A stretch of 64,000 nucleotides of DNA from Gemmatimonadales bacterium (GCA_033853695.1 JAWOLH010000026.1:20299-84298); one strand, 5' to 3'. Shown: positions 1-46,573, counted from the stretch's first letter. Notes: generated from the letters alone by a model not told the origin. Translations and numbers: made by a program.

Positions 1-68
1 CACGAGACGACCGAGAACACCACCAGGACCGCGAGGACGACTTTCGTTTCGCGGCTCGATGTCAGCAC
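1..68 (-). CDS. 5' end of a CDS that runs off the left edge; the N-terminus looks like a signal or TM anchor
   Basis: GTG at 68..66 opens a frame to position 1 that reads MLTSSRETKVVLAVLVVFSVVS, a short charged n-region followed by a hydrophobic core. It is on the same strand as, and just downstream of, the epimerase gene. Too short to identify. Confidence 0.3.
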   Translation of the reverse strand, partial: MLTSSRETKVVLAVLVVFSVVS

Positions 69-118
69 CAGCTCCCATGGCGTGGTGGGCACCGCCCGCC
101 CGACTTGCAAGAGCACCC

Positions 119-1063
119 TTACCCCTCCCGGATCCAGCGGAGTGTGCGCGCCACGCCTTCGGGCAGCGCCACCCGCGGACGCCAATCCAGTTCCCGTGCG
201 GCCTTCGACACGTCCAGCGCACTGCGCAGGATCTCCCCGGCCCGCGCCGGGGCGTGGCTGATCGAGCTCTGCGAGCCGGCCGCGTCGGCGATGATCCGCG
301 TGAGGCGGTTGACCGTGGTCTCGACTCCGGTGCCGATGTTGTAGGCGCGGGCGTCGAGGCCGCCGAGCGGCGGCAAGGGGCGCTCGGCGGCAATGACGTT
401 GGCCGCGGCCACGTCCTCGACGTACACCAGGTCGCGCGTCTGTTCCCCGTCACCGTAGATCGTGACCGGCTCCCCGGCGAGCAGCCGGCGCCCGAAGATC
501 GCCACGACCCCCGCCTCTCCATGCGGATTCTGGCGCGGCCCGTACACGTTGCTGTAGCGCAGGCAGACCGCCTCCAGGCCGAACAACTGTGCGAACGTCG
601 CGAGATAGTACTCCGACGTCAGCTTGGCGGTCCCGTAGGGGGAGGCGGGGAGCTTGCCGGCGGTTTCGGGCGTCGGCGTGGGGGCACCATCGCCGTACAC
701 CGTTCCCCCCGATGACGCGAACACGACGCGGCGCACCCCCCCCGCCCGCGCCCCCTCGAGGACGTTCAGCAGGCCGATCACGTTCACCTGCGCGTCGAAT
801 ACCGGGTCGGCGACCGAGCGCCGCACGTCCATCTGGGCGGCGTGGTGATTGAGGATGGTGAAGCCGCCGGTGGCTGCGAGCGACCGGGCTTCTGGCGAGC
901 GGACGTCGGCGCGGACCAGCGGCACGCCGGCGGGGAGGTTCTCGGCCTTGCCGGATGAGAGGTCGTCGAGGACCGTGACGTCGTCACCGGCGGCCAGGTA
1001 GGCGCGGACGAGGTGGGAGCCGATGAACCCCGCGCCGCCCGTTATCAAGACTCGGCGTTTCAT
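119..1063 (-). CDS. NAD-dependent epimerase/dehydratase, UDP-glucose 4-epimerase (GalE)-like
   Basis: N-terminal Rossmann motif VLITGGAGFIGSH and the YxxxK catalytic motif (SPYGTAKLTSEYY). Extended-SDR length of 314 aa. ATG at 1063. Confidence 0.85.
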   Translation of the reverse strand: MKRRVLITGGAGFIGSHLVRAYLAAGDDVTVLDDLSSGKAENLPAGVPLVRADVRSPEARSLAATGGFTILNHHAAQMDVRRSVADPVFDAQVNVIGLLNVLEGARAGGVRRVVFASSGGTVYGDGAPTPTPETAGKLPASPYGTAKLTSEYYLATFAQLFGLEAVCLRYSNVYGPRQNPHGEAGVVAIFGRRLLAGEPVTIYGDGEQTRDLVYVEDVAAANVIAAERPLPPLGGLDARAYNIGTGVETTVNRLTRIIADAAGSQSSISHAPARAGEILRSALDVSKAARELDWRPRVALPEGVARTLRWIREG

Positions 1064-1133
1064 AGGAATGCGATTCCCGTGAGGGACCTGCCAACCGCCG
1101 GCGCCGGGCGATGCCGGTGCCGGGCGGAGGCGG

Positions 1134-2411
1134 TCAGGAGGGCATTTTCTTGATCAACCGCACCGGCATACCTGGAATGAGCTGCGGATTCGACATGCCG
1201 ATGACGATCGCCGAGGAGGTGTGTTCGCGGGTATGCGCAACCAGCAGCTGTACCCTGACCTCCTCGGACCGGGCACCGATCTCGCCCGATGCCGGGCGGT
1301 ATGCCTCGAACACATCCCCCAACGCCACGCCGTCGGCGCGGCCTTTGTCGAGGAACACCACCTGTTGCACGCTGGCGAGCACGTGCGAGTCCCGCATGTC
1401 GATCAGGTGACCCTGCAACCCCTGATCCACGTCCGCCGGGCGCACCTCGCCGGGATCCTTGAAGGGCTCGAGCGGCAACGCCACCGTCCCACCCCGGATT
1501 CGCCCGAACTGCATGATGATGGTCGCCAGCACCTGCTTCTGCTGCAGCGACGTGACCCGGGCCACCCCCACGGGGACGACGACCGAACCCCAGGGGTCGA
1601 GGTCGCGGTCGAGCCGCGCGACGAGCAGCGAGTCCCCGATGTGATACGACGCCTGCGACGGCGGCAGAATGGCGAGCTCCTCGAACTGTGTAGCCACGCT
1701 CGCTTGCGGATTCGCCAGCACCGGAATCGACGGCTTCGCCGTGTTCCCCACGACCGTCGCCCACGGCAGCTTTTCGCCCTCGGTCAGGAAGCCGGACGAG
1801 TAGAACTCGCCGCGCCGTACCGGGCGGTACACCTGGTGCGCGTACGCGCGCAGCACGTCCGCGACGCGTTGCTGCTGCGTCGCGCGGCGGTCAAAGATGG
1901 TCCCCGGCCCCTCGGGCTCGGCCGCAGGCGGCGGGGGCGGCGGAGCGACCTGCGTCGTGTCGGCCGCACCCGTGGTGTCCGCCGCGCCGGCCTCGCGCTG
2001 CGCGACGGTCTGCGTCGTATCGGTCACAGGAGCCGTTGCGATGCCGCCCAGGTCCAGCACCTCGCCGGGGTAGATCCAGTGGGGGTCCTCGATCACCGAC
2101 GTATTACGGCGGTAGATCTCCGGCCACAGGAGGGCATCGGAAAAGTTCTGCTGTGAGATCGACCAGAGCGTCTCACCGCTGACGACGACGTGTTTGCCGG
2201 CGGCGGGAAGCGGCGGTGTGGTGTCTTGCGAGACCGCCGGGTGGGGCTTGGTGGTGTCTTGCGGGGCCGCCGGGTGAGCCTTCGTCGTGTCTTGCGGGGC
2301 CGCCGGGCGAGCCGTAGTGGTGTCCTGCGCGACGAGGGTCGCGGCCAGCGGCAGGGCGACCACCACGGCCCACATGACGCGGCTAGAACGGCAGATCGTC
2401 GTCCTCCTCAT
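1134..2411 (-). CDS. Secreted LysM-domain (peptidoglycan-binding) protein with N-terminal Pro/Thr-rich tandem repeats
   Basis: Signal-peptide-like N-terminus (MRRTTICRSSRVMWAVVVALPLAATLVAQ). LysM-like segment HVVVSGETLWSISQQ...WPEIYRRN...IYPGEVL. ATG at 2411 overlaps the ssb 3' end by 29 nt; an alternative ATG at 2375 avoids the overlap. Confidence 0.8.
   Translation of the reverse strand: MRRTTICRSSRVMWAVVVALPLAATLVAQDTTTARPAAPQDTTKAHPAAPQDTTKPHPAVSQDTTPPLPAAGKHVVVSGETLWSISQQNFSDALLWPEIYRRNTSVIEDPHWIYPGEVLDLGGIATAPVTDTTQTVAQREAGAADTTGAADTTQVAPPPPPPAAEPEGPGTIFDRRATQQQRVADVLRAYAHQVYRPVRRGEFYSSGFLTEGEKLPWATVVGNTAKPSIPVLANPQASVATQFEELAILPPSQASYHIGDSLLVARLDRDLDPWGSVVVPVGVARVTSLQQKQVLATIIMQFGRIRGGTVALPLEPFKDPGEVRPADVDQGLQGHLIDMRDSHVLASVQQVVFLDKGRADGVALGDVFEAYRPASGEIGARSEEVRVQLLVAHTREHTSSAIVIGMSNPQLIPGMPVRLIKKMPS
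2196..2327 (-). repeat. Four tandem 33-bp (11-aa) repeats inside the LysM gene
   Basis: Protein repeats QDTTTARPAAP / QDTTKAHPAAP / QDTTKPHPAVS / QDTTPPLPAAG. The DNA period ggtgtcttgcgRgRccgccgggtg is visible on the plus strand. Confidence 0.7.
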
Positions 2412-37719: not shown

Positions 37720-37804
<85 letters not shown>

Positions 37805-37807
37805 CTC

Positions 37808-38935
37808 TCAATAGCGCGCCAGCTGGGGATCGACCTCCGTCGCCCATGCGTCAATCCCACCCCGCACACTCCACACCTTCGAGAATCCCGCCGCCCGCAA
37901 CAGCTCGACCGCCTGGCGCGAGCGCGTTCCGTGATGGCAATAGACGAGCACCTCGGCGTGCCCGTCGAGCTCCCGCAACCGGGCGGGCAGCTCGCGCAAC
38001 GGCACGTGCCGGGCCCCGTCGACGTGCACGATGTCCCACTCGAACGGCTCGCGGACGTCGAGCAGCACGACCGCGCGGTCTCTCCCGCGTGCCGCGCTCG
38101 CATCGGTCGCGGAGATCTCGCCGTCCGCCGCCCTCGGCGCGCCGACCCCGCAGAATGCCTCGTAGTCGATCAGCTGGGTCACGGTTGGATGCGGACCGCA
38201 CAGCACGCACTCGGGATCTTTCGTGAGGGCGATCTCACGGAACTGCAGTTTCATCCCGTCGAACAACAGCAGGCGTCCGATGAGCGGCAGGCCGGTGCCG
38301 GTGACGAGCTTGATCGCCTCGAGTGCCTGGAGGCTGCCGATTACACCGGGAACCACACCCAGCACGCCGCCCTCGGCGCAGGACGGCACCAGCTCCGGAG
38401 GAGGCGGCTCGCGGTACAGGCAGCGGTAGCAGGGTCCGCGGTGCGTATCGAATACCGACACCTGTCCTTCGAATCGCAGCACGGCGCCGTACACCGTCGG
38501 AGTCCCGAGCAGGACGCAGGCGTCGTTGACGAGATAGCGGGTCGGGAAGTTGTCGCTGCCGTCCAGGACGACGTCCCACCCCCGCAGGCGCTCGAGGGCG
38601 TTCGCCGCGGTGAGACGGGCCTCGATCGTCTCCACCTGCACGTGCGGGTTCAGGTCGGCGAGGCGCGCCCGGGCCGAGGCGAGTTTCGATGTCCCGACGG
38701 CGGCGGTGCCGTGCAGCACCTGGCGCTGCAGATTCGACCCATCCACCACGTCGAAATCGATCAGGCCGATCGTCCCGACCCCCGCGGCGGCGAGATACAA
38801 AGCCGCCGGGGAGCCGAGACCGCCGGCGCCGACGAGGAGTACGCGGGCGGCTTTGAGGCGTTCCTGTCCCGCAAGACCGATCTCGGGCAGGATCAGGTGG
38901 CGGGAGTAGCGGATCAGCTCGTCGTGTGACAGCAT
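37808..38935 (-). CDS. moeZ: MoeB/ThiF-family adenylyltransferase fused to a C-terminal rhodanese domain (MoeZ-type sulfur-carrier activating enzyme)
   Basis: YSRHLILPEIG..GQ..L..A.VLLVGAGGLGSP.ALYLAAAGVG..GL.D.D.V..SNLQRQ, Zn motifs CYRC...PSCAEGGVLG, and a rhodanese loop YCHHGTRS. The stop is only 4 nt from the convergent tRNA 3' end. Confidence 0.85.
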   Translation of the reverse strand: MLSHDELIRYSRHLILPEIGLAGQERLKAARVLLVGAGGLGSPAALYLAAAGVGTIGLIDFDVVDGSNLQRQVLHGTAAVGTSKLASARARLADLNPHVQVETIEARLTAANALERLRGWDVVLDGSDNFPTRYLVNDACVLLGTPTVYGAVLRFEGQVSVFDTHRGPCYRCLYREPPPPELVPSCAEGGVLGVVPGVIGSLQALEAIKLVTGTGLPLIGRLLLFDGMKLQFREIALTKDPECVLCGPHPTVTQLIDYEAFCGVGAPRAADGEISATDASAARGRDRAVVLLDVREPFEWDIVHVDGARHVPLRELPARLRELDGHAEVLVYCHHGTRSRQAVELLRAAGFSKVWSVRGGIDAWATEVDPQLARY

Positions 38936-41874: not shown

Positions 41875-42516
41875 TTAGACGATGGGGAAGGCCCCGGTGA
41901 GGAACGGATTGGCGCGACGCTCGACACCGATCGTGGTGGCTGGTCCATGGCCGGAGTACACGATGGTCGAATCGGGGAGAACGAGCAACTCCCGCTCGAT
42001 GCTCCCAATGAGCGTCTCCAGGTCGCCGCCCGGGAGATCGGTCCGCCCGATGGACCCCTGGAAGAGCACGTCGCCGCTGAACACGACTCCCTCACCGGCG
42101 AGCGACACCGAGCCCGGCGAATGTCCCGGCGTATGCCGCACGTCGAACGTCAGCGTCCCGACCCGGATCGATTGGCCCGGGGTCCAGCTCCGGTCAGGTG
42201 GCGGCAGGCGTGACACCGTTGGGAGCCCAAACGCCGCCGCCTGCTCCGGGACATGGTCGTAGAGTGGGCGATCGGCGGGGTGCAGATAGATCGGGGCCCC
42301 CGTCTCGGCGCGGATCTGCGACACCCCGAGGACGTGGTCGAGGTGCGCGTGGGTGATCCAGATGGCGACTGGCTTCGCGCCGGCCTGCTCGACCTGGTGC
42401 AGAATCAGGCCGGCCTCCTCTCCCGGATCGACGACGGCGCATTCCCCGGCGGCCTCGTCCAACACGAGATAGCAGTTCTCCGCAAACGACCCGTTCGGAA
42501 TCTGGACGATCTTCAT
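41875..42516 (-). CDS. MBL-fold metallo-hydrolase (glyoxalase II / YcbL-like)
   Basis: THAHLDHV metal motif, HTPGHSPGS, GDVLF.GSIGRTDLPGG, and SGHGP.TTIG.E. ATGA overlap with the trxB stop. Confidence 0.85.
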   Translation of the reverse strand: MKIVQIPNGSFAENCYLVLDEAAGECAVVDPGEEAGLILHQVEQAGAKPVAIWITHAHLDHVLGVSQIRAETGAPIYLHPADRPLYDHVPEQAAAFGLPTVSRLPPPDRSWTPGQSIRVGTLTFDVRHTPGHSPGSVSLAGEGVVFSGDVLFQGSIGRTDLPGGDLETLIGSIERELLVLPDSTIVYSGHGPATTIGVERRANPFLTGAFPIV

Positions 42517-43496
42517 GAGACCGCCGCGTGCTTCGCCGGCGCGAGCTCGCCTTTTGCCCGCAACCCGGCGAGATACTTCTCGACCGCGATCGCGGCCGTC
42601 GTCGCGTCGCCCACCGCCGTCGTGATCTGCCGCGTCACCTGGCTGCGCACGTCCCCGGCGGCGAAGAGACCGGGAATCGACGTCATCATCTTCTCATCGG
42701 TGACGAAGTAGCCCCCCTCATCGTGACGGTAGTGCCCCGCGACGAGACCGGCGTTGGGGCGAAACCCGATGAACACGAAGACGCCGCCGACCGAGAGCCG
42801 ACTCTTCTCGCCCGTGACCGTGTCCTCGAGCTCCAGATGCGTGGTGCCCTTCTCGCTGCCGCCGATCTCGAGCACGCGCTTGTTCCAGATGAATTCGATC
42901 TTGGGATTCGCGAACGCCCGCTCCTGGAGGATCTTGGATGCGCGTAGCGTATCGCGGCGGTGCACGATGTACACCTTCTGCGCGTAGCGCGTGAGATAAT
43001 CCGCCTCTTCCACGGCGGCGTCGCCCCCGCCCACTACCGCCAGCACCTCTCCTTTGAAGAACGCCCCGTCACACACCGCGCAATACGACACGCCCTTCCC
43101 CGCGTATTCCCGCTCCCCCGGGACGCCGAGCTTCACGGGGGTACCGCCCGCCGTCAGGATCACGGCCGGGGCGCGATAGGTCCGCCCGCGCGCGGTGCTG
43201 ATGTCGAACCACCCATCCTCGGCTTTGCGGATCTTCTCAACCGTGTCGGTGACGATCTCGGCGCCGAACTTCAGGGCGTGCGCGTGGAACTTCTGGGCGA
43301 GCTCCCACCCCTTGATGCTTTCGTACCCGATATAGTCCTCGACCAGATCGGTGTTCAGGAGCTCCCCGCCCGGTGCGCCGCGCTCGATGGTGAGCGCGTG
43401 GATCATGCCGCGCCCGGCGTACATCGCCGCGCACATCCCCGCGGGGCCCGCCCCCACGATGATGAGGTCGTAGCTCGACTGTTTCGTCTCAGCCAT
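42513..43496 (-). CDS. trxB: Thioredoxin-disulfide reductase
   Basis: YDLIIVGAGPAGM.AA.YA.R, redox-active CAVCDG, and the second dinucleotide site VVGGGDAAVEEA.YLT. ATG 43496 is chosen; the track start at 43643 is an extension. Confidence 0.9.
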   Translation of the reverse strand: MAETKQSSYDLIIVGAGPAGMCAAMYAGRGMIHALTIERGAPGGELLNTDLVEDYIGYESIKGWELAQKFHAHALKFGAEIVTDTVEKIRKAEDGWFDISTARGRTYRAPAVILTAGGTPVKLGVPGEREYAGKGVSYCAVCDGAFFKGEVLAVVGGGDAAVEEADYLTRYAQKVYIVHRRDTLRASKILQERAFANPKIEFIWNKRVLEIGGSEKGTTHLELEDTVTGEKSRLSVGGVFVFIGFRPNAGLVAGHYRHDEGGYFVTDEKMMTSIPGLFAAGDVRSQVTRQITTAVGDATTAAIAVEKYLAGLRAKGELAPAKHAAVS

Positions 43497-45361: not shown

Positions 45362-46090
45362 TCAGTCCGGTGCTGCGAGCAGCGGCAGCACGTGCCCGGT
45401 CACCGTGGCGGCGGCGTCGGACGCGAGCCACAGCACCGTCCGCACCAGGTCCGCCAACTCGACGAAGCGCGCCCCGGAGCCCATGTCGCGCTCGTTGGCC
45501 GCCGTGCGAACCGCTTCGGGTGCAATCGCGTTGACCCGGATCCTGTCATCCCCAAATTCGCGCGCGAGGGCGCGCGTCAGCGCCGCGACGCCTCCCTTGG
45601 CCGCGGCGTAGGCGGCCAGGCTCGGCTGCGGCTGTCGCACGGCGATGGACGCGAAGTTCACGATCGCGCCGCCGCCGCGGCGCCTGAGCGCCGGAATGGC
45701 CGCCTGGCTCATGGCGAACACCGTCCGCAGGTTGCTCGCGAGCTCACGGTCGAGCGCGGCGACATCGCTCTCCAGAAATGGCCCGTAGCTCGTGAGACCA
45801 CCGGCCGCGTTGATGAGGAGGTCGAGGCCGCCGAACCGCTGCTCCGCGGTGGCGACCGCCCCGCGGGCGGCCGCCGGATCCCCCAGGTTGCCGGCCGCCA
45901 GTGCCGCCGCAATCCCGCGCGCTTCGAGCTCCTGCACCCGCGCCTCGAGCGCATCCCGCCGGCGCGCCGCCACCACAACCTTCGCCCCGGCCTCCCCCAG
46001 CGCCGCGGCGAGCGCGGCGCCGATCTGCCCCGCCTGCCCCACGCCGCTCACGAGCGCCACCTTGCCGGCGAACGAGGCGGCCGGACTCAC
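45362..46090 (-). CDS. SDR-family oxidoreductase (FabG-like)
   Basis: GKVALVSGVGQAGQIGAA, NAAG, the S...YAAAKGG catalytic pattern, and IRVNAIAPE. GTG start forms a GTGA overlap with the peroxiredoxin stop. Confidence 0.8.
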   Translation of the reverse strand: MSPAASFAGKVALVSGVGQAGQIGAALAAALGEAGAKVVVAARRRDALEARVQELEARGIAAALAAGNLGDPAAARGAVATAEQRFGGLDLLINAAGGLTSYGPFLESDVAALDRELASNLRTVFAMSQAAIPALRRRGGGAIVNFASIAVRQPQPSLAAYAAAKGGVAALTRALAREFGDDRIRVNAIAPEAVRTAANERDMGSGARFVELADLVRTVLWLASDAAATVTGHVLPLLAAPD

Positions 46091-46536
46091 GCACCCTCAC
46101 CAGCCGCAGCGACGATGTCGTCGACGGCGGGCGCTCCACGCTGGCCGAACCGCACCGTCCCGTCTTTCCCGACGACGTACACCGTCCGGGCGATGCCGCG
46201 GTCGTCCTCCTTCAACGCGTGATACGCCCGCGCGATCGCGCGGTCGGGATCGGAGAGCAGCGGGAAGTTGAAGTGCATCTTGTCGACGTACTTCTTGTGG
46301 GCGTCGACGGTCGCGGGATTCACCCCGAAAGGTTGAATCCCGGCTCGCTCGAACTTCTTCATCTCATCGCGCACGGCGGAGAGTTGGCGGTTTCACCCGG
46401 GTGTGTTGTTCCCCGGGTAAAACACCAGGGCAACGGATCCGCGCCGCAGCAGGTCGGCCAGGCGGTAAGTCTTCCCATCCGACGCTGGAGCCTCGAACGC
46501 CGGAGCCAGTGTCCCGATCGCGAGTGGTTCGCTCAT
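46087..46536 (-). CDS. bcp: Bcp/PrxQ-type peroxiredoxin with in-frame TGA (46395..46393) at the peroxidatic Cys position; candidate selenoprotein, alternatively a pseudogene
   Basis: ATG 46536 with a [15 protein letters not shown]. The frame reads MSEPLAIGTLAPAFEAPASDGKTYRLADLLRRGSVALVFYPGNNTPG-TGA-NRQLSAVRDEMKKFERAGIQPFGVNPATVDAHKKYVDKMHFNFPLLSDPDRAIARAYHAL...TVYVVGKDGTVRF as a single frame of 149 codons. The track reports only the 3' 95 aa. Confidence 0.6.
46362..46382 (-). promoter_or_regulatory. Candidate bacterial SECIS-like hairpin downstream of the in-frame UGA
   Basis: The mRNA reads UCUC-CGC-[CGUGC]-GCG-AU-GAGA: 4+3 bp with a 2-nt bulge and a GU in the apical loop about 19-20 nt after the UGA. 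The stem is short and was hand-folded only. Confidence 0.3.
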
Positions 46537-46573
46537 TTACGCCTTTCTCCTTCCGTAGCCCCACCCTACGCGG

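Follow-up and report, generated by a model that had tools for sequence, protein, structure and literature searches.

The Prx family of pfam00578 / COG1225 (Bcp), recognized by a TxxU motif, is a listed selenoprotein family (PMC9312934, 2022 review table), for which 12 members were counted in 2006 (PMC1794560) and 253 members, compared with 7,348 cysteine (Cys) homologues, in the GOS marine data (PMC2398784, Table 2). An experimentally characterized precedent for a peroxiredoxin containing selenocysteine (Sec) is PrxU of Eubacterium acidaminophilum (Sohling et al. 2001, cited in PMC9312934). Here, we analyzed a 64,000-nucleotide stretch of DNA from a Gemmatimonadales bacterium (GCA_033853695.1, JAWOLH010000026.1:20299-84298; hereafter the window, with positions counted from its first letter), which carries on its minus strand a Bcp/PrxQ-like peroxiredoxin gene (46087..46536) with an in-frame TGA at codon 48 (46393..46395). 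Judging from comparative analysis, the locus very probably encodes a Sec peroxiredoxin of the Bcp/PrxQ type in which the UGA of codon 48 is read as Sec; the conservation of the TGA, the selection acting on the gene, and a TGA-specific downstream element support this view, which a sequence-only reading of the same DNA had put forward. The gene fits the established Prx TxxU family, and hence represents an already known enzyme type and no new kind of system. It shares with that family the domain, the TxxU motif (T45-P-G-U48), the predicted replacement of the peroxidatic Cys by Sec, the abundance of Cys homologues, and a stem-loop right after the UGA. It differs in originating from a soil member of the Gemmatimonadales and in that the selenocysteine insertion sequence (SECIS)-like element of its clade is invariant in sequence. 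Moreover, most genes of the sampled Gemmatimonadales clade are of the Sec form, whereas Sec forms are usually in the minority in the family (PMC1794560, PMC2398784).

The peroxiredoxin gene starts at an ATG (46536..46534), located 10 nt downstream of a Shine-Dalgarno-like AAGGAG read from the sequence (46547..46552, minus strand), and its upstream part comprises 47 sense codons ending in ...VALVFYPGNNTPG. After the TGA at 46395..46393, the frame continues unchanged for 101 sense codons (NRQLSAVRDEMKKFERAG...FPLLSDPD...VVGKDGTVRF...) up to a TGA stop at 46089..46087. The full-length gene thus spans 149 codons (M1...T45-P-G-U48...R117...A149) followed by the terminal TGA, and the peptide spanning codon 48 would read GSVALVFYPGNNTPG-X-NR if the UGA is translated. 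The true stop overlaps, within a GTGA (46087..46090), the GTG start (46090) of a downstream SDR gene (45362..46090). The sequence-only reading had described the gene in the same terms, including a strong Shine-Dalgarno motif in front of ATG 46536 and the GTGA coupling, and our inspection of the sequence agrees with it. The split by standard open reading frame (ORF) calling that it had anticipated also occurs: mechanical calling breaks the gene into a 47-aa ORF (46393..46536) and a 95-aa ORF (46087..46374), and in the public annotation of a closely related contig (GCA_037916995.1, L001 9827..10276) it appears as separate pieces of 47 and 91 aa. This second assembly is 99.91% identical to the window over 14.5 kb and carries the same TGA, indicating that the codon is not a read error. 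Public calls for the peroxiredoxin gene are systematically truncated, appearing as 47-aa and 90-97-aa pieces (P0031, P0049, P0059, and others); the 90-97-aa pieces are often labeled "peroxiredoxin Q/BCP," and the error has spread over dozens of protein clusters.

The window has a G+C content of 68%, and TGA serves as the normal stop in 19 of its 29 confident ORFs, including that of the peroxiredoxin. Therefore, the codon is not reassigned, in line with the earlier expectation that global recoding is unlikely. The terminal TGA of the peroxiredoxin is not followed by the conserved element described below and is therefore an ordinary stop.

For domain and structure comparisons, the product was translated with Cys in place of the internal stop. 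It matches Pfam AhpC-TSA (PF00578) with an E value of 1.9e-34 over residues 7-129 (profile positions 1-122 of 124), and its best relatives of solved structure are the BCP/PrxQ proteins 5enu, 3drn, and 2cx3 (E 7.5e-19 to 3.9e-16). The window enzyme shares with these Cys-type Bcp/PrxQ proteins, as well as with E. coli BCP, the fold family and the active-site Thr and Arg, but differs from them in its predicted Sec and in the lack of a resolving Cys. The TGA aligns with the Cys of the FYPKDNTPGC motif in PDB 5enu, and Arg117 aligns with the Arg of GIERSTF in the same structure. Cys48, Thr45, and Arg117 are invariant across 16 aligned Cys-type orthologues, and T45 is present in 149/149 Sec-type proteins. 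The TGA is accordingly located exactly at the codon of the peroxidatic Cys, as had been claimed, and Sec is the predicted occupant of that position.

To assess the conservation of this codon, we scanned genomes at one per species, considering the best 80 loci, all of which came from metagenome-assembled genomes (MAGs) of Gemmatimonadales/Gemmatimonadota, and 80 soil-metagenome loci, for which the scan was seeded with Cys-type proteins. TGA occupies exactly codon 48 in 80/80 of the Gemmatimonadales genome loci, and 78/80 of the soil-metagenome loci have TGA and 2/80 have TGC, despite the Cys-type query. Since Cys stands in the same column in 16/16 Cys-type orthologues, the homologues carry either Cys or TGA there, the pattern that the sequence-only reading had proposed to look for by alignment. 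In a protein search, the full-length relatives (147-152 aa) are 55-78% identical, and those inspected read ...TPG-C-NRQLS..., whereas the closer relatives (81-93% identity) are only 90-97 aa long and correspond to the same split product. The Sec-type set comprises 159 genes, including that of the window, of which 158 have full upstream sequence. The 158 TGA-bearing orthologues are 72-92% identical, and pairwise comparison yields ratios of nonsynonymous to synonymous divergence (dN/dS) of 0.16 over codons 1-47 and 0.18 over codons 60-149; synonymous sites in these flanks approach saturation (proportion of synonymous differences, pS, 0.55). In 155 of 158 genes, an ATG precedes the TGA by 47 codons, no further stops or frameshifts occur in the 158 Sec-type genes, and the spacing between the 2 halves is constant. 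The comparison indicates that both halves are kept as a one-frame protein-coding sequence across many species; with each side of the TGA under purifying selection in a single frame, neither a recent nonsense mutation nor an assembly error can account for the codon. The TGA-bearing gene is not a pseudogene.

The UGA is followed by a SECIS-like element of 30 nt (46363..46392, minus strand; +3..+32 after the U of UGA) with the sequence AAC CGC CAA CUC UCC GCC GUG CGC GAU GAG. It consists of a 9-nt spacer, AACCGCCAA (46392..46384, +3..+11), and a predicted hairpin, CUC-UC-CGC-[CGUGC]-GCG-AU-GAG (46383..46363; loop 46375..46371), in which the CUC/GAG and CGC/GCG stems, with a UC/AU internal loop between them, close the CGUGC loop. 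Among 81 distinct sequences, third-codon positions within +3..+32 are 96-100% conserved, as opposed to 45-75% elsewhere in the gene; the exception is +29 (T in 78% and C in 22%), the sole variable site within the hairpin and an unpaired one. Likewise, pS drops to 0.084 over codons 49-58, compared with 0.55 in the flanks. Every TGA gene (159/159) retains the complete 21-nt hairpin, whereas none of the syntenic Cys orthologues does (0/8; Fisher p 8e-14, without correction for common descent), demonstrating the conservation of the downstream region that the sequence-only reading had named as a check. The 8 Cys orthologues, several of which encode an identical NRQLSAVRDE, use other codons (CGG, CAG, CTG, TCG, GTA/GTT, GAA/GAT), and some replace the loop Val with Ala (GTG to GCG); in each of the 8, 2-7 of the 30 positions deviate from the Sec consensus. 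Because the same peptide is encoded there by other codons, the peptide does not explain the constraint, and the RNA-level constraint is confined to UGA-bearing genes. A Sec-type gene nested among Cys-type relatives (L086) has the full element, which is absent from its Cys neighbors.

The spacer AACCGCCAA is nearly invariant and avoids G. Its Arg codon is CGC, CGT, or CGA, with CGG found in 0/159 Sec genes and in 4/8 Cys orthologues, and its Gln codon is CAA in 157/159 Sec genes, compared with CAG in 5/8 Cys orthologues. Base pairing does not explain this constraint, because the predicted partners at +34/+35 vary.

The arrangement resembles the SECIS of E. coli fdhF, which we extracted for comparison: in both cases the hairpin lies immediately 3' of the UGA within the coding sequence, the stem is broken by unpaired residues, and the loop contains GU, at +22/+23 in the window and at +23/+24 in fdhF. 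The window stem is shorter and weaker (-7.8 versus about -15 kcal/mol for comparable stretches), the sequences differ (a 5-nt loop CGUGC in the window and GGUC in fdhF), and the 9-nt spacer of the window is invariant as well. The sequence-only reading had noted a GU-loop hairpin at the SECIS distance, which is indeed present, although it lies at 46363..46383 and not at 46362..46382. Folding of the region after the TGA, which had also been suggested, recovers the hairpin, but the structure is energetically weak.

This weakness belongs to a group of results that weigh against a Sec-decoding Bcp. Over 38 nt, the minimum free energy of the hairpin is -7.8 kcal/mol with a z score of -1.55, and 16 of 200 shuffled sequences fold as well; a wider fold of 71 nt shows no exceptional stability (z +0.74). 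Since none of the 12 paired positions varies, there is no covariation to support the fold, and no Rfam SECIS matched, either in the whole window at gathering thresholds or in 46300..46450 at E <= 10, where only chance hits were obtained. On the protein side, the best NCBIfam match, the Bcp equivalog NF006960 (thioredoxin-dependent thiol peroxidase), reaches 72.2 bits against a cut-off of 140, and the product is therefore named Bcp/PrxQ-like at the family level only. The PrxU equivalog NF040737, a model of 233 positions, gives 40.6 bits, below its cut-off of 270; the window protein would share with PrxU the replacement of the peroxidatic Cys by Sec in a peroxiredoxin, but it falls into another peroxiredoxin subfamily. 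On these profile scores, the protein is a divergent Bcp/PrxQ-like lineage and not a PrxU equivalog. Finally, searches of the window and of 1.19 Mb of related Gemmatimonadales loci recovered neither selA, selB, or selD (tblastn with E. coli queries, E <= 1e-3) nor a tRNA-Sec (ARAGORN). This absence is expected, because the window and the loci are a small sample of each genome. In one data set, selA (K01042) and selD (K01008) are each present in a fraction of 0.8636 of Gemmatimonadota MAGs (PMC8938466, supplement file 13); apart from this per-phylum gene table, we found no paper on Sec use or selenoproteins in Gemmatimonadota. Near a Cys-type locus (L168), a 494-aa pyridoxal phosphate (PLP)-dependent decarboxylase (5..1489, minus strand) has an overlapping Pfam SepSecS hit; Pyridoxal_deC and related PLP-enzyme families match the same product, so that the hit looks like family overlap and not like Sec machinery.

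Other accounts of the interrupted gene have to be weighed against these data. An error of sequencing or assembly would have nothing but the bare in-frame stop to commend it, and the same holds for a reading of UGA as a standard amino acid throughout the lineage. The same codon recurs in independently built assemblies and in 150+ contigs contributed by many projects, and UGA terminates 19/29 confident ORFs of the window, the peroxiredoxin gene included; with the recurrent TGA, the second assembly, and the ordinary TGA stops ruling out both versions, we give this account practically no credence. A recent nonsense pseudogene of an ordinary Bcp (TGC to TGA) was the alternative raised at the outset, given that TGA is one base away from a Cys codon and that automatic annotation produces two fragments. 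It is extremely improbable, since the TGA is common to 158 orthologues of 72-92% identity, dN/dS is 0.16-0.18 on both sides, the genes are free of frameshifts and extra stops, the start codon is conserved, and a TGA-specific conserved element lies directly 3' of the codon; the shared TGA (80/80, 78/80) together with purifying selection rules it out. The gene could instead specify 2 products, with a C-terminal fragment of about 91-95 aa made from its own start codon in addition to a 47-aa peptide, and gene callers do use as starts a GTG (Val55) and, in the window, an ATG (Met59) that follow soon after the TGA. Yet only 45 of 81 distinct sequences have ATG as codon 59, the others having ATC or ATA, and the invariant GTG sits in the hairpin loop without a preceding Shine-Dalgarno motif. 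Furthermore, the 2 parts are always in one frame with a spacing that never varies, neither fragment alone holds the complete Thr-Cys/Sec-Arg active site, and the Cys-type orthologues at the same locus are one protein, all of which makes separate products very improbable.

The identity of the inserted residue is a finer question. Systems with tRNA-Cys carrying a UCA anticodon and SelB exist, and the UGA might be recoded in such a way, with a tRNA-Cys(UCA) perhaps delivered by SelB, or by SelB-independent near-cognate read-through stimulated by the 30 nt. The sequence data show only that the UGA is translated and that a downstream RNA element is needed, not which residue is inserted, and the Sec machinery was not found in the window and the 1.19 Mb of loci; both points are compatible with non-Sec recoding. 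We nevertheless consider it improbable, because the element has the position and the loop GU of a bacterial SECIS, and because Cys can be obtained through a plain TGC, as some relatives do, which then lose the element. That 80+ species retain both the UGA and the 30-nt constraint therefore points to a residue for which no other codon is available, and selA and selD are reported to be common in the phylum (PMC8938466). Given that 30 nt, including the G-avoiding 9-nt spacer, are frozen across 80+ species, one may speculate that the Gemmatimonadales recoding signal is lineage-specific, is recognized through its sequence and not through its shape alone, and involves an unusual SelB-mRNA-ribosome contact, or else that the UGA is decoded otherwise, for example by a UCA-anticodon tRNA-Cys; we regard this broader proposal as rather improbable.

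Under the favored reading of UGA48 as Sec, SelB carrying Sec-tRNA(Sec) would be recruited to the hairpin after the UGA, with SelB binding being a presumed step, and Sec-tRNA(Sec) would outcompete release factor 2, leading to the insertion of what is most likely Sec, after which translation would proceed to the real stop at 46089..46087. The product is predicted to be a 149-residue peroxiredoxin of thioredoxin fold with the motif T45-P-G-U48 and a conserved Arg117, which would reduce a peroxide, its putative substrate, via a selenenic-acid intermediate. Because 147/149 Sec-type proteins are devoid of any Cys, there is no resolving residue and an external reductant would be needed. The enzyme may thus work as a "1-Sec" peroxiredoxin and rely for its direct recycling on an external thiol, for example thioredoxin, which the presence of a nearby thioredoxin-disulfide reductase (TrxB) gene makes the obvious, if presumptive, candidate.

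A second Cys located 5-6 residues after the peroxidatic Cys is found in 15/91 Cys-type relatives (P0003, P0007, and others) and is likely the resolving Cys. Sec-type proteins never carry a Cys 5-6 residues after the Sec; the equivalent codons of the window, 53-54 (about 46375..46380), fall partly within the SECIS stem and partly where its loop begins, so that the constraint on the RNA may leave no room for a Cys codon at these positions.

Sec- and Cys-type proteins are not cleanly separated in phylogeny. In a rough neighbor-joining tree, 23/91 Cys-type proteins are placed inside the Sec clade. Most of the SECIS sequence is still recognizable in some Cys-type genes (L164, L165, L166, and L169), which differ from it at only 2-4 positions, for example by GTG to GCG within the loop or by CAA to CAG combined with GAG to GAA. 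The sequence comparisons suggest repeated switching between Sec and Cys, in the Sec-to-Cys or the Cys-to-Sec direction, accompanied by decaying SECIS remnants.

The peroxiredoxin gene resides in a co-oriented cluster with the order PHP - Prx - SDR - SDR - AF_1314_C - DUF309 - TrxB - MBL, which is the same at Sec-type and Cys-type loci; the Cys-type orthologues in this cluster of other Gemmatimonadota are single proteins. The TrxB gene (42513..43496, minus strand; coordinates mapped from L001) matches NCBIfam TIGR01292 with 362.4 bits (cut-off 343.45). One of the 2 SDRs of the cluster is pteridine-reductase-like, and MBL denotes a metallo-beta-lactamase-fold protein. An AhpD-like (CMD) gene is found near the Cys-type loci L168 and L169 and is absent at the corresponding place of the window. 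Elsewhere in the window, the sole tRNA, tRNA-Leu(CAG) (37720..37803, plus strand), adjoins a gene for a ThiF-plus-rhodanese fusion with MoeB/MoeZ-like sulfur-transfer architecture (37808..38935, minus strand).

The search for further selenoprotein genes was carried out with 2 scans, both filtered for a G+C content at third codon positions (GC3) above 0.8, a filter that drops the peroxiredoxin itself (GC3 0.80) and makes the scans non-exhaustive. The composition scan of the window returned 3 sites, none of them convincing; one, a TGA at about 12809 (minus strand) between same-frame ORFs of 436 and 1100 codons, seems to mark a normal transition between two genes, the second of which begins just after it, and is not a selenoprotein candidate. 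The scan for Cys/TGA pairs, which compared 1,068 ORFs with 1.53 Mb, gave off-frame artefacts only.

The main value of the locus lies in the correction of annotation and in a data set on SECIS evolution. Gene calls for the genomes of at least 80 Gemmatimonadales species and for many soil metagenome contigs show two fragments or only a truncated "peroxiredoxin" of 90-97 aa; protein catalogues therefore lack what is very probably a conserved selenoenzyme with an antioxidant role in a phylum abundant in soil. The 159 Sec genes and their syntenic Cys orthologues with partial remnants provide a clean natural data set on the gain and decay of SECIS elements. As for the organisms themselves, a Sec peroxiredoxin would imply a dependence of these bacteria on selenium, together with possession of the Sec-decoding trait, and a Sec-majority form in a soil lineage, if true, would run counter to the reported link between Sec peroxiredoxins and anaerobes.

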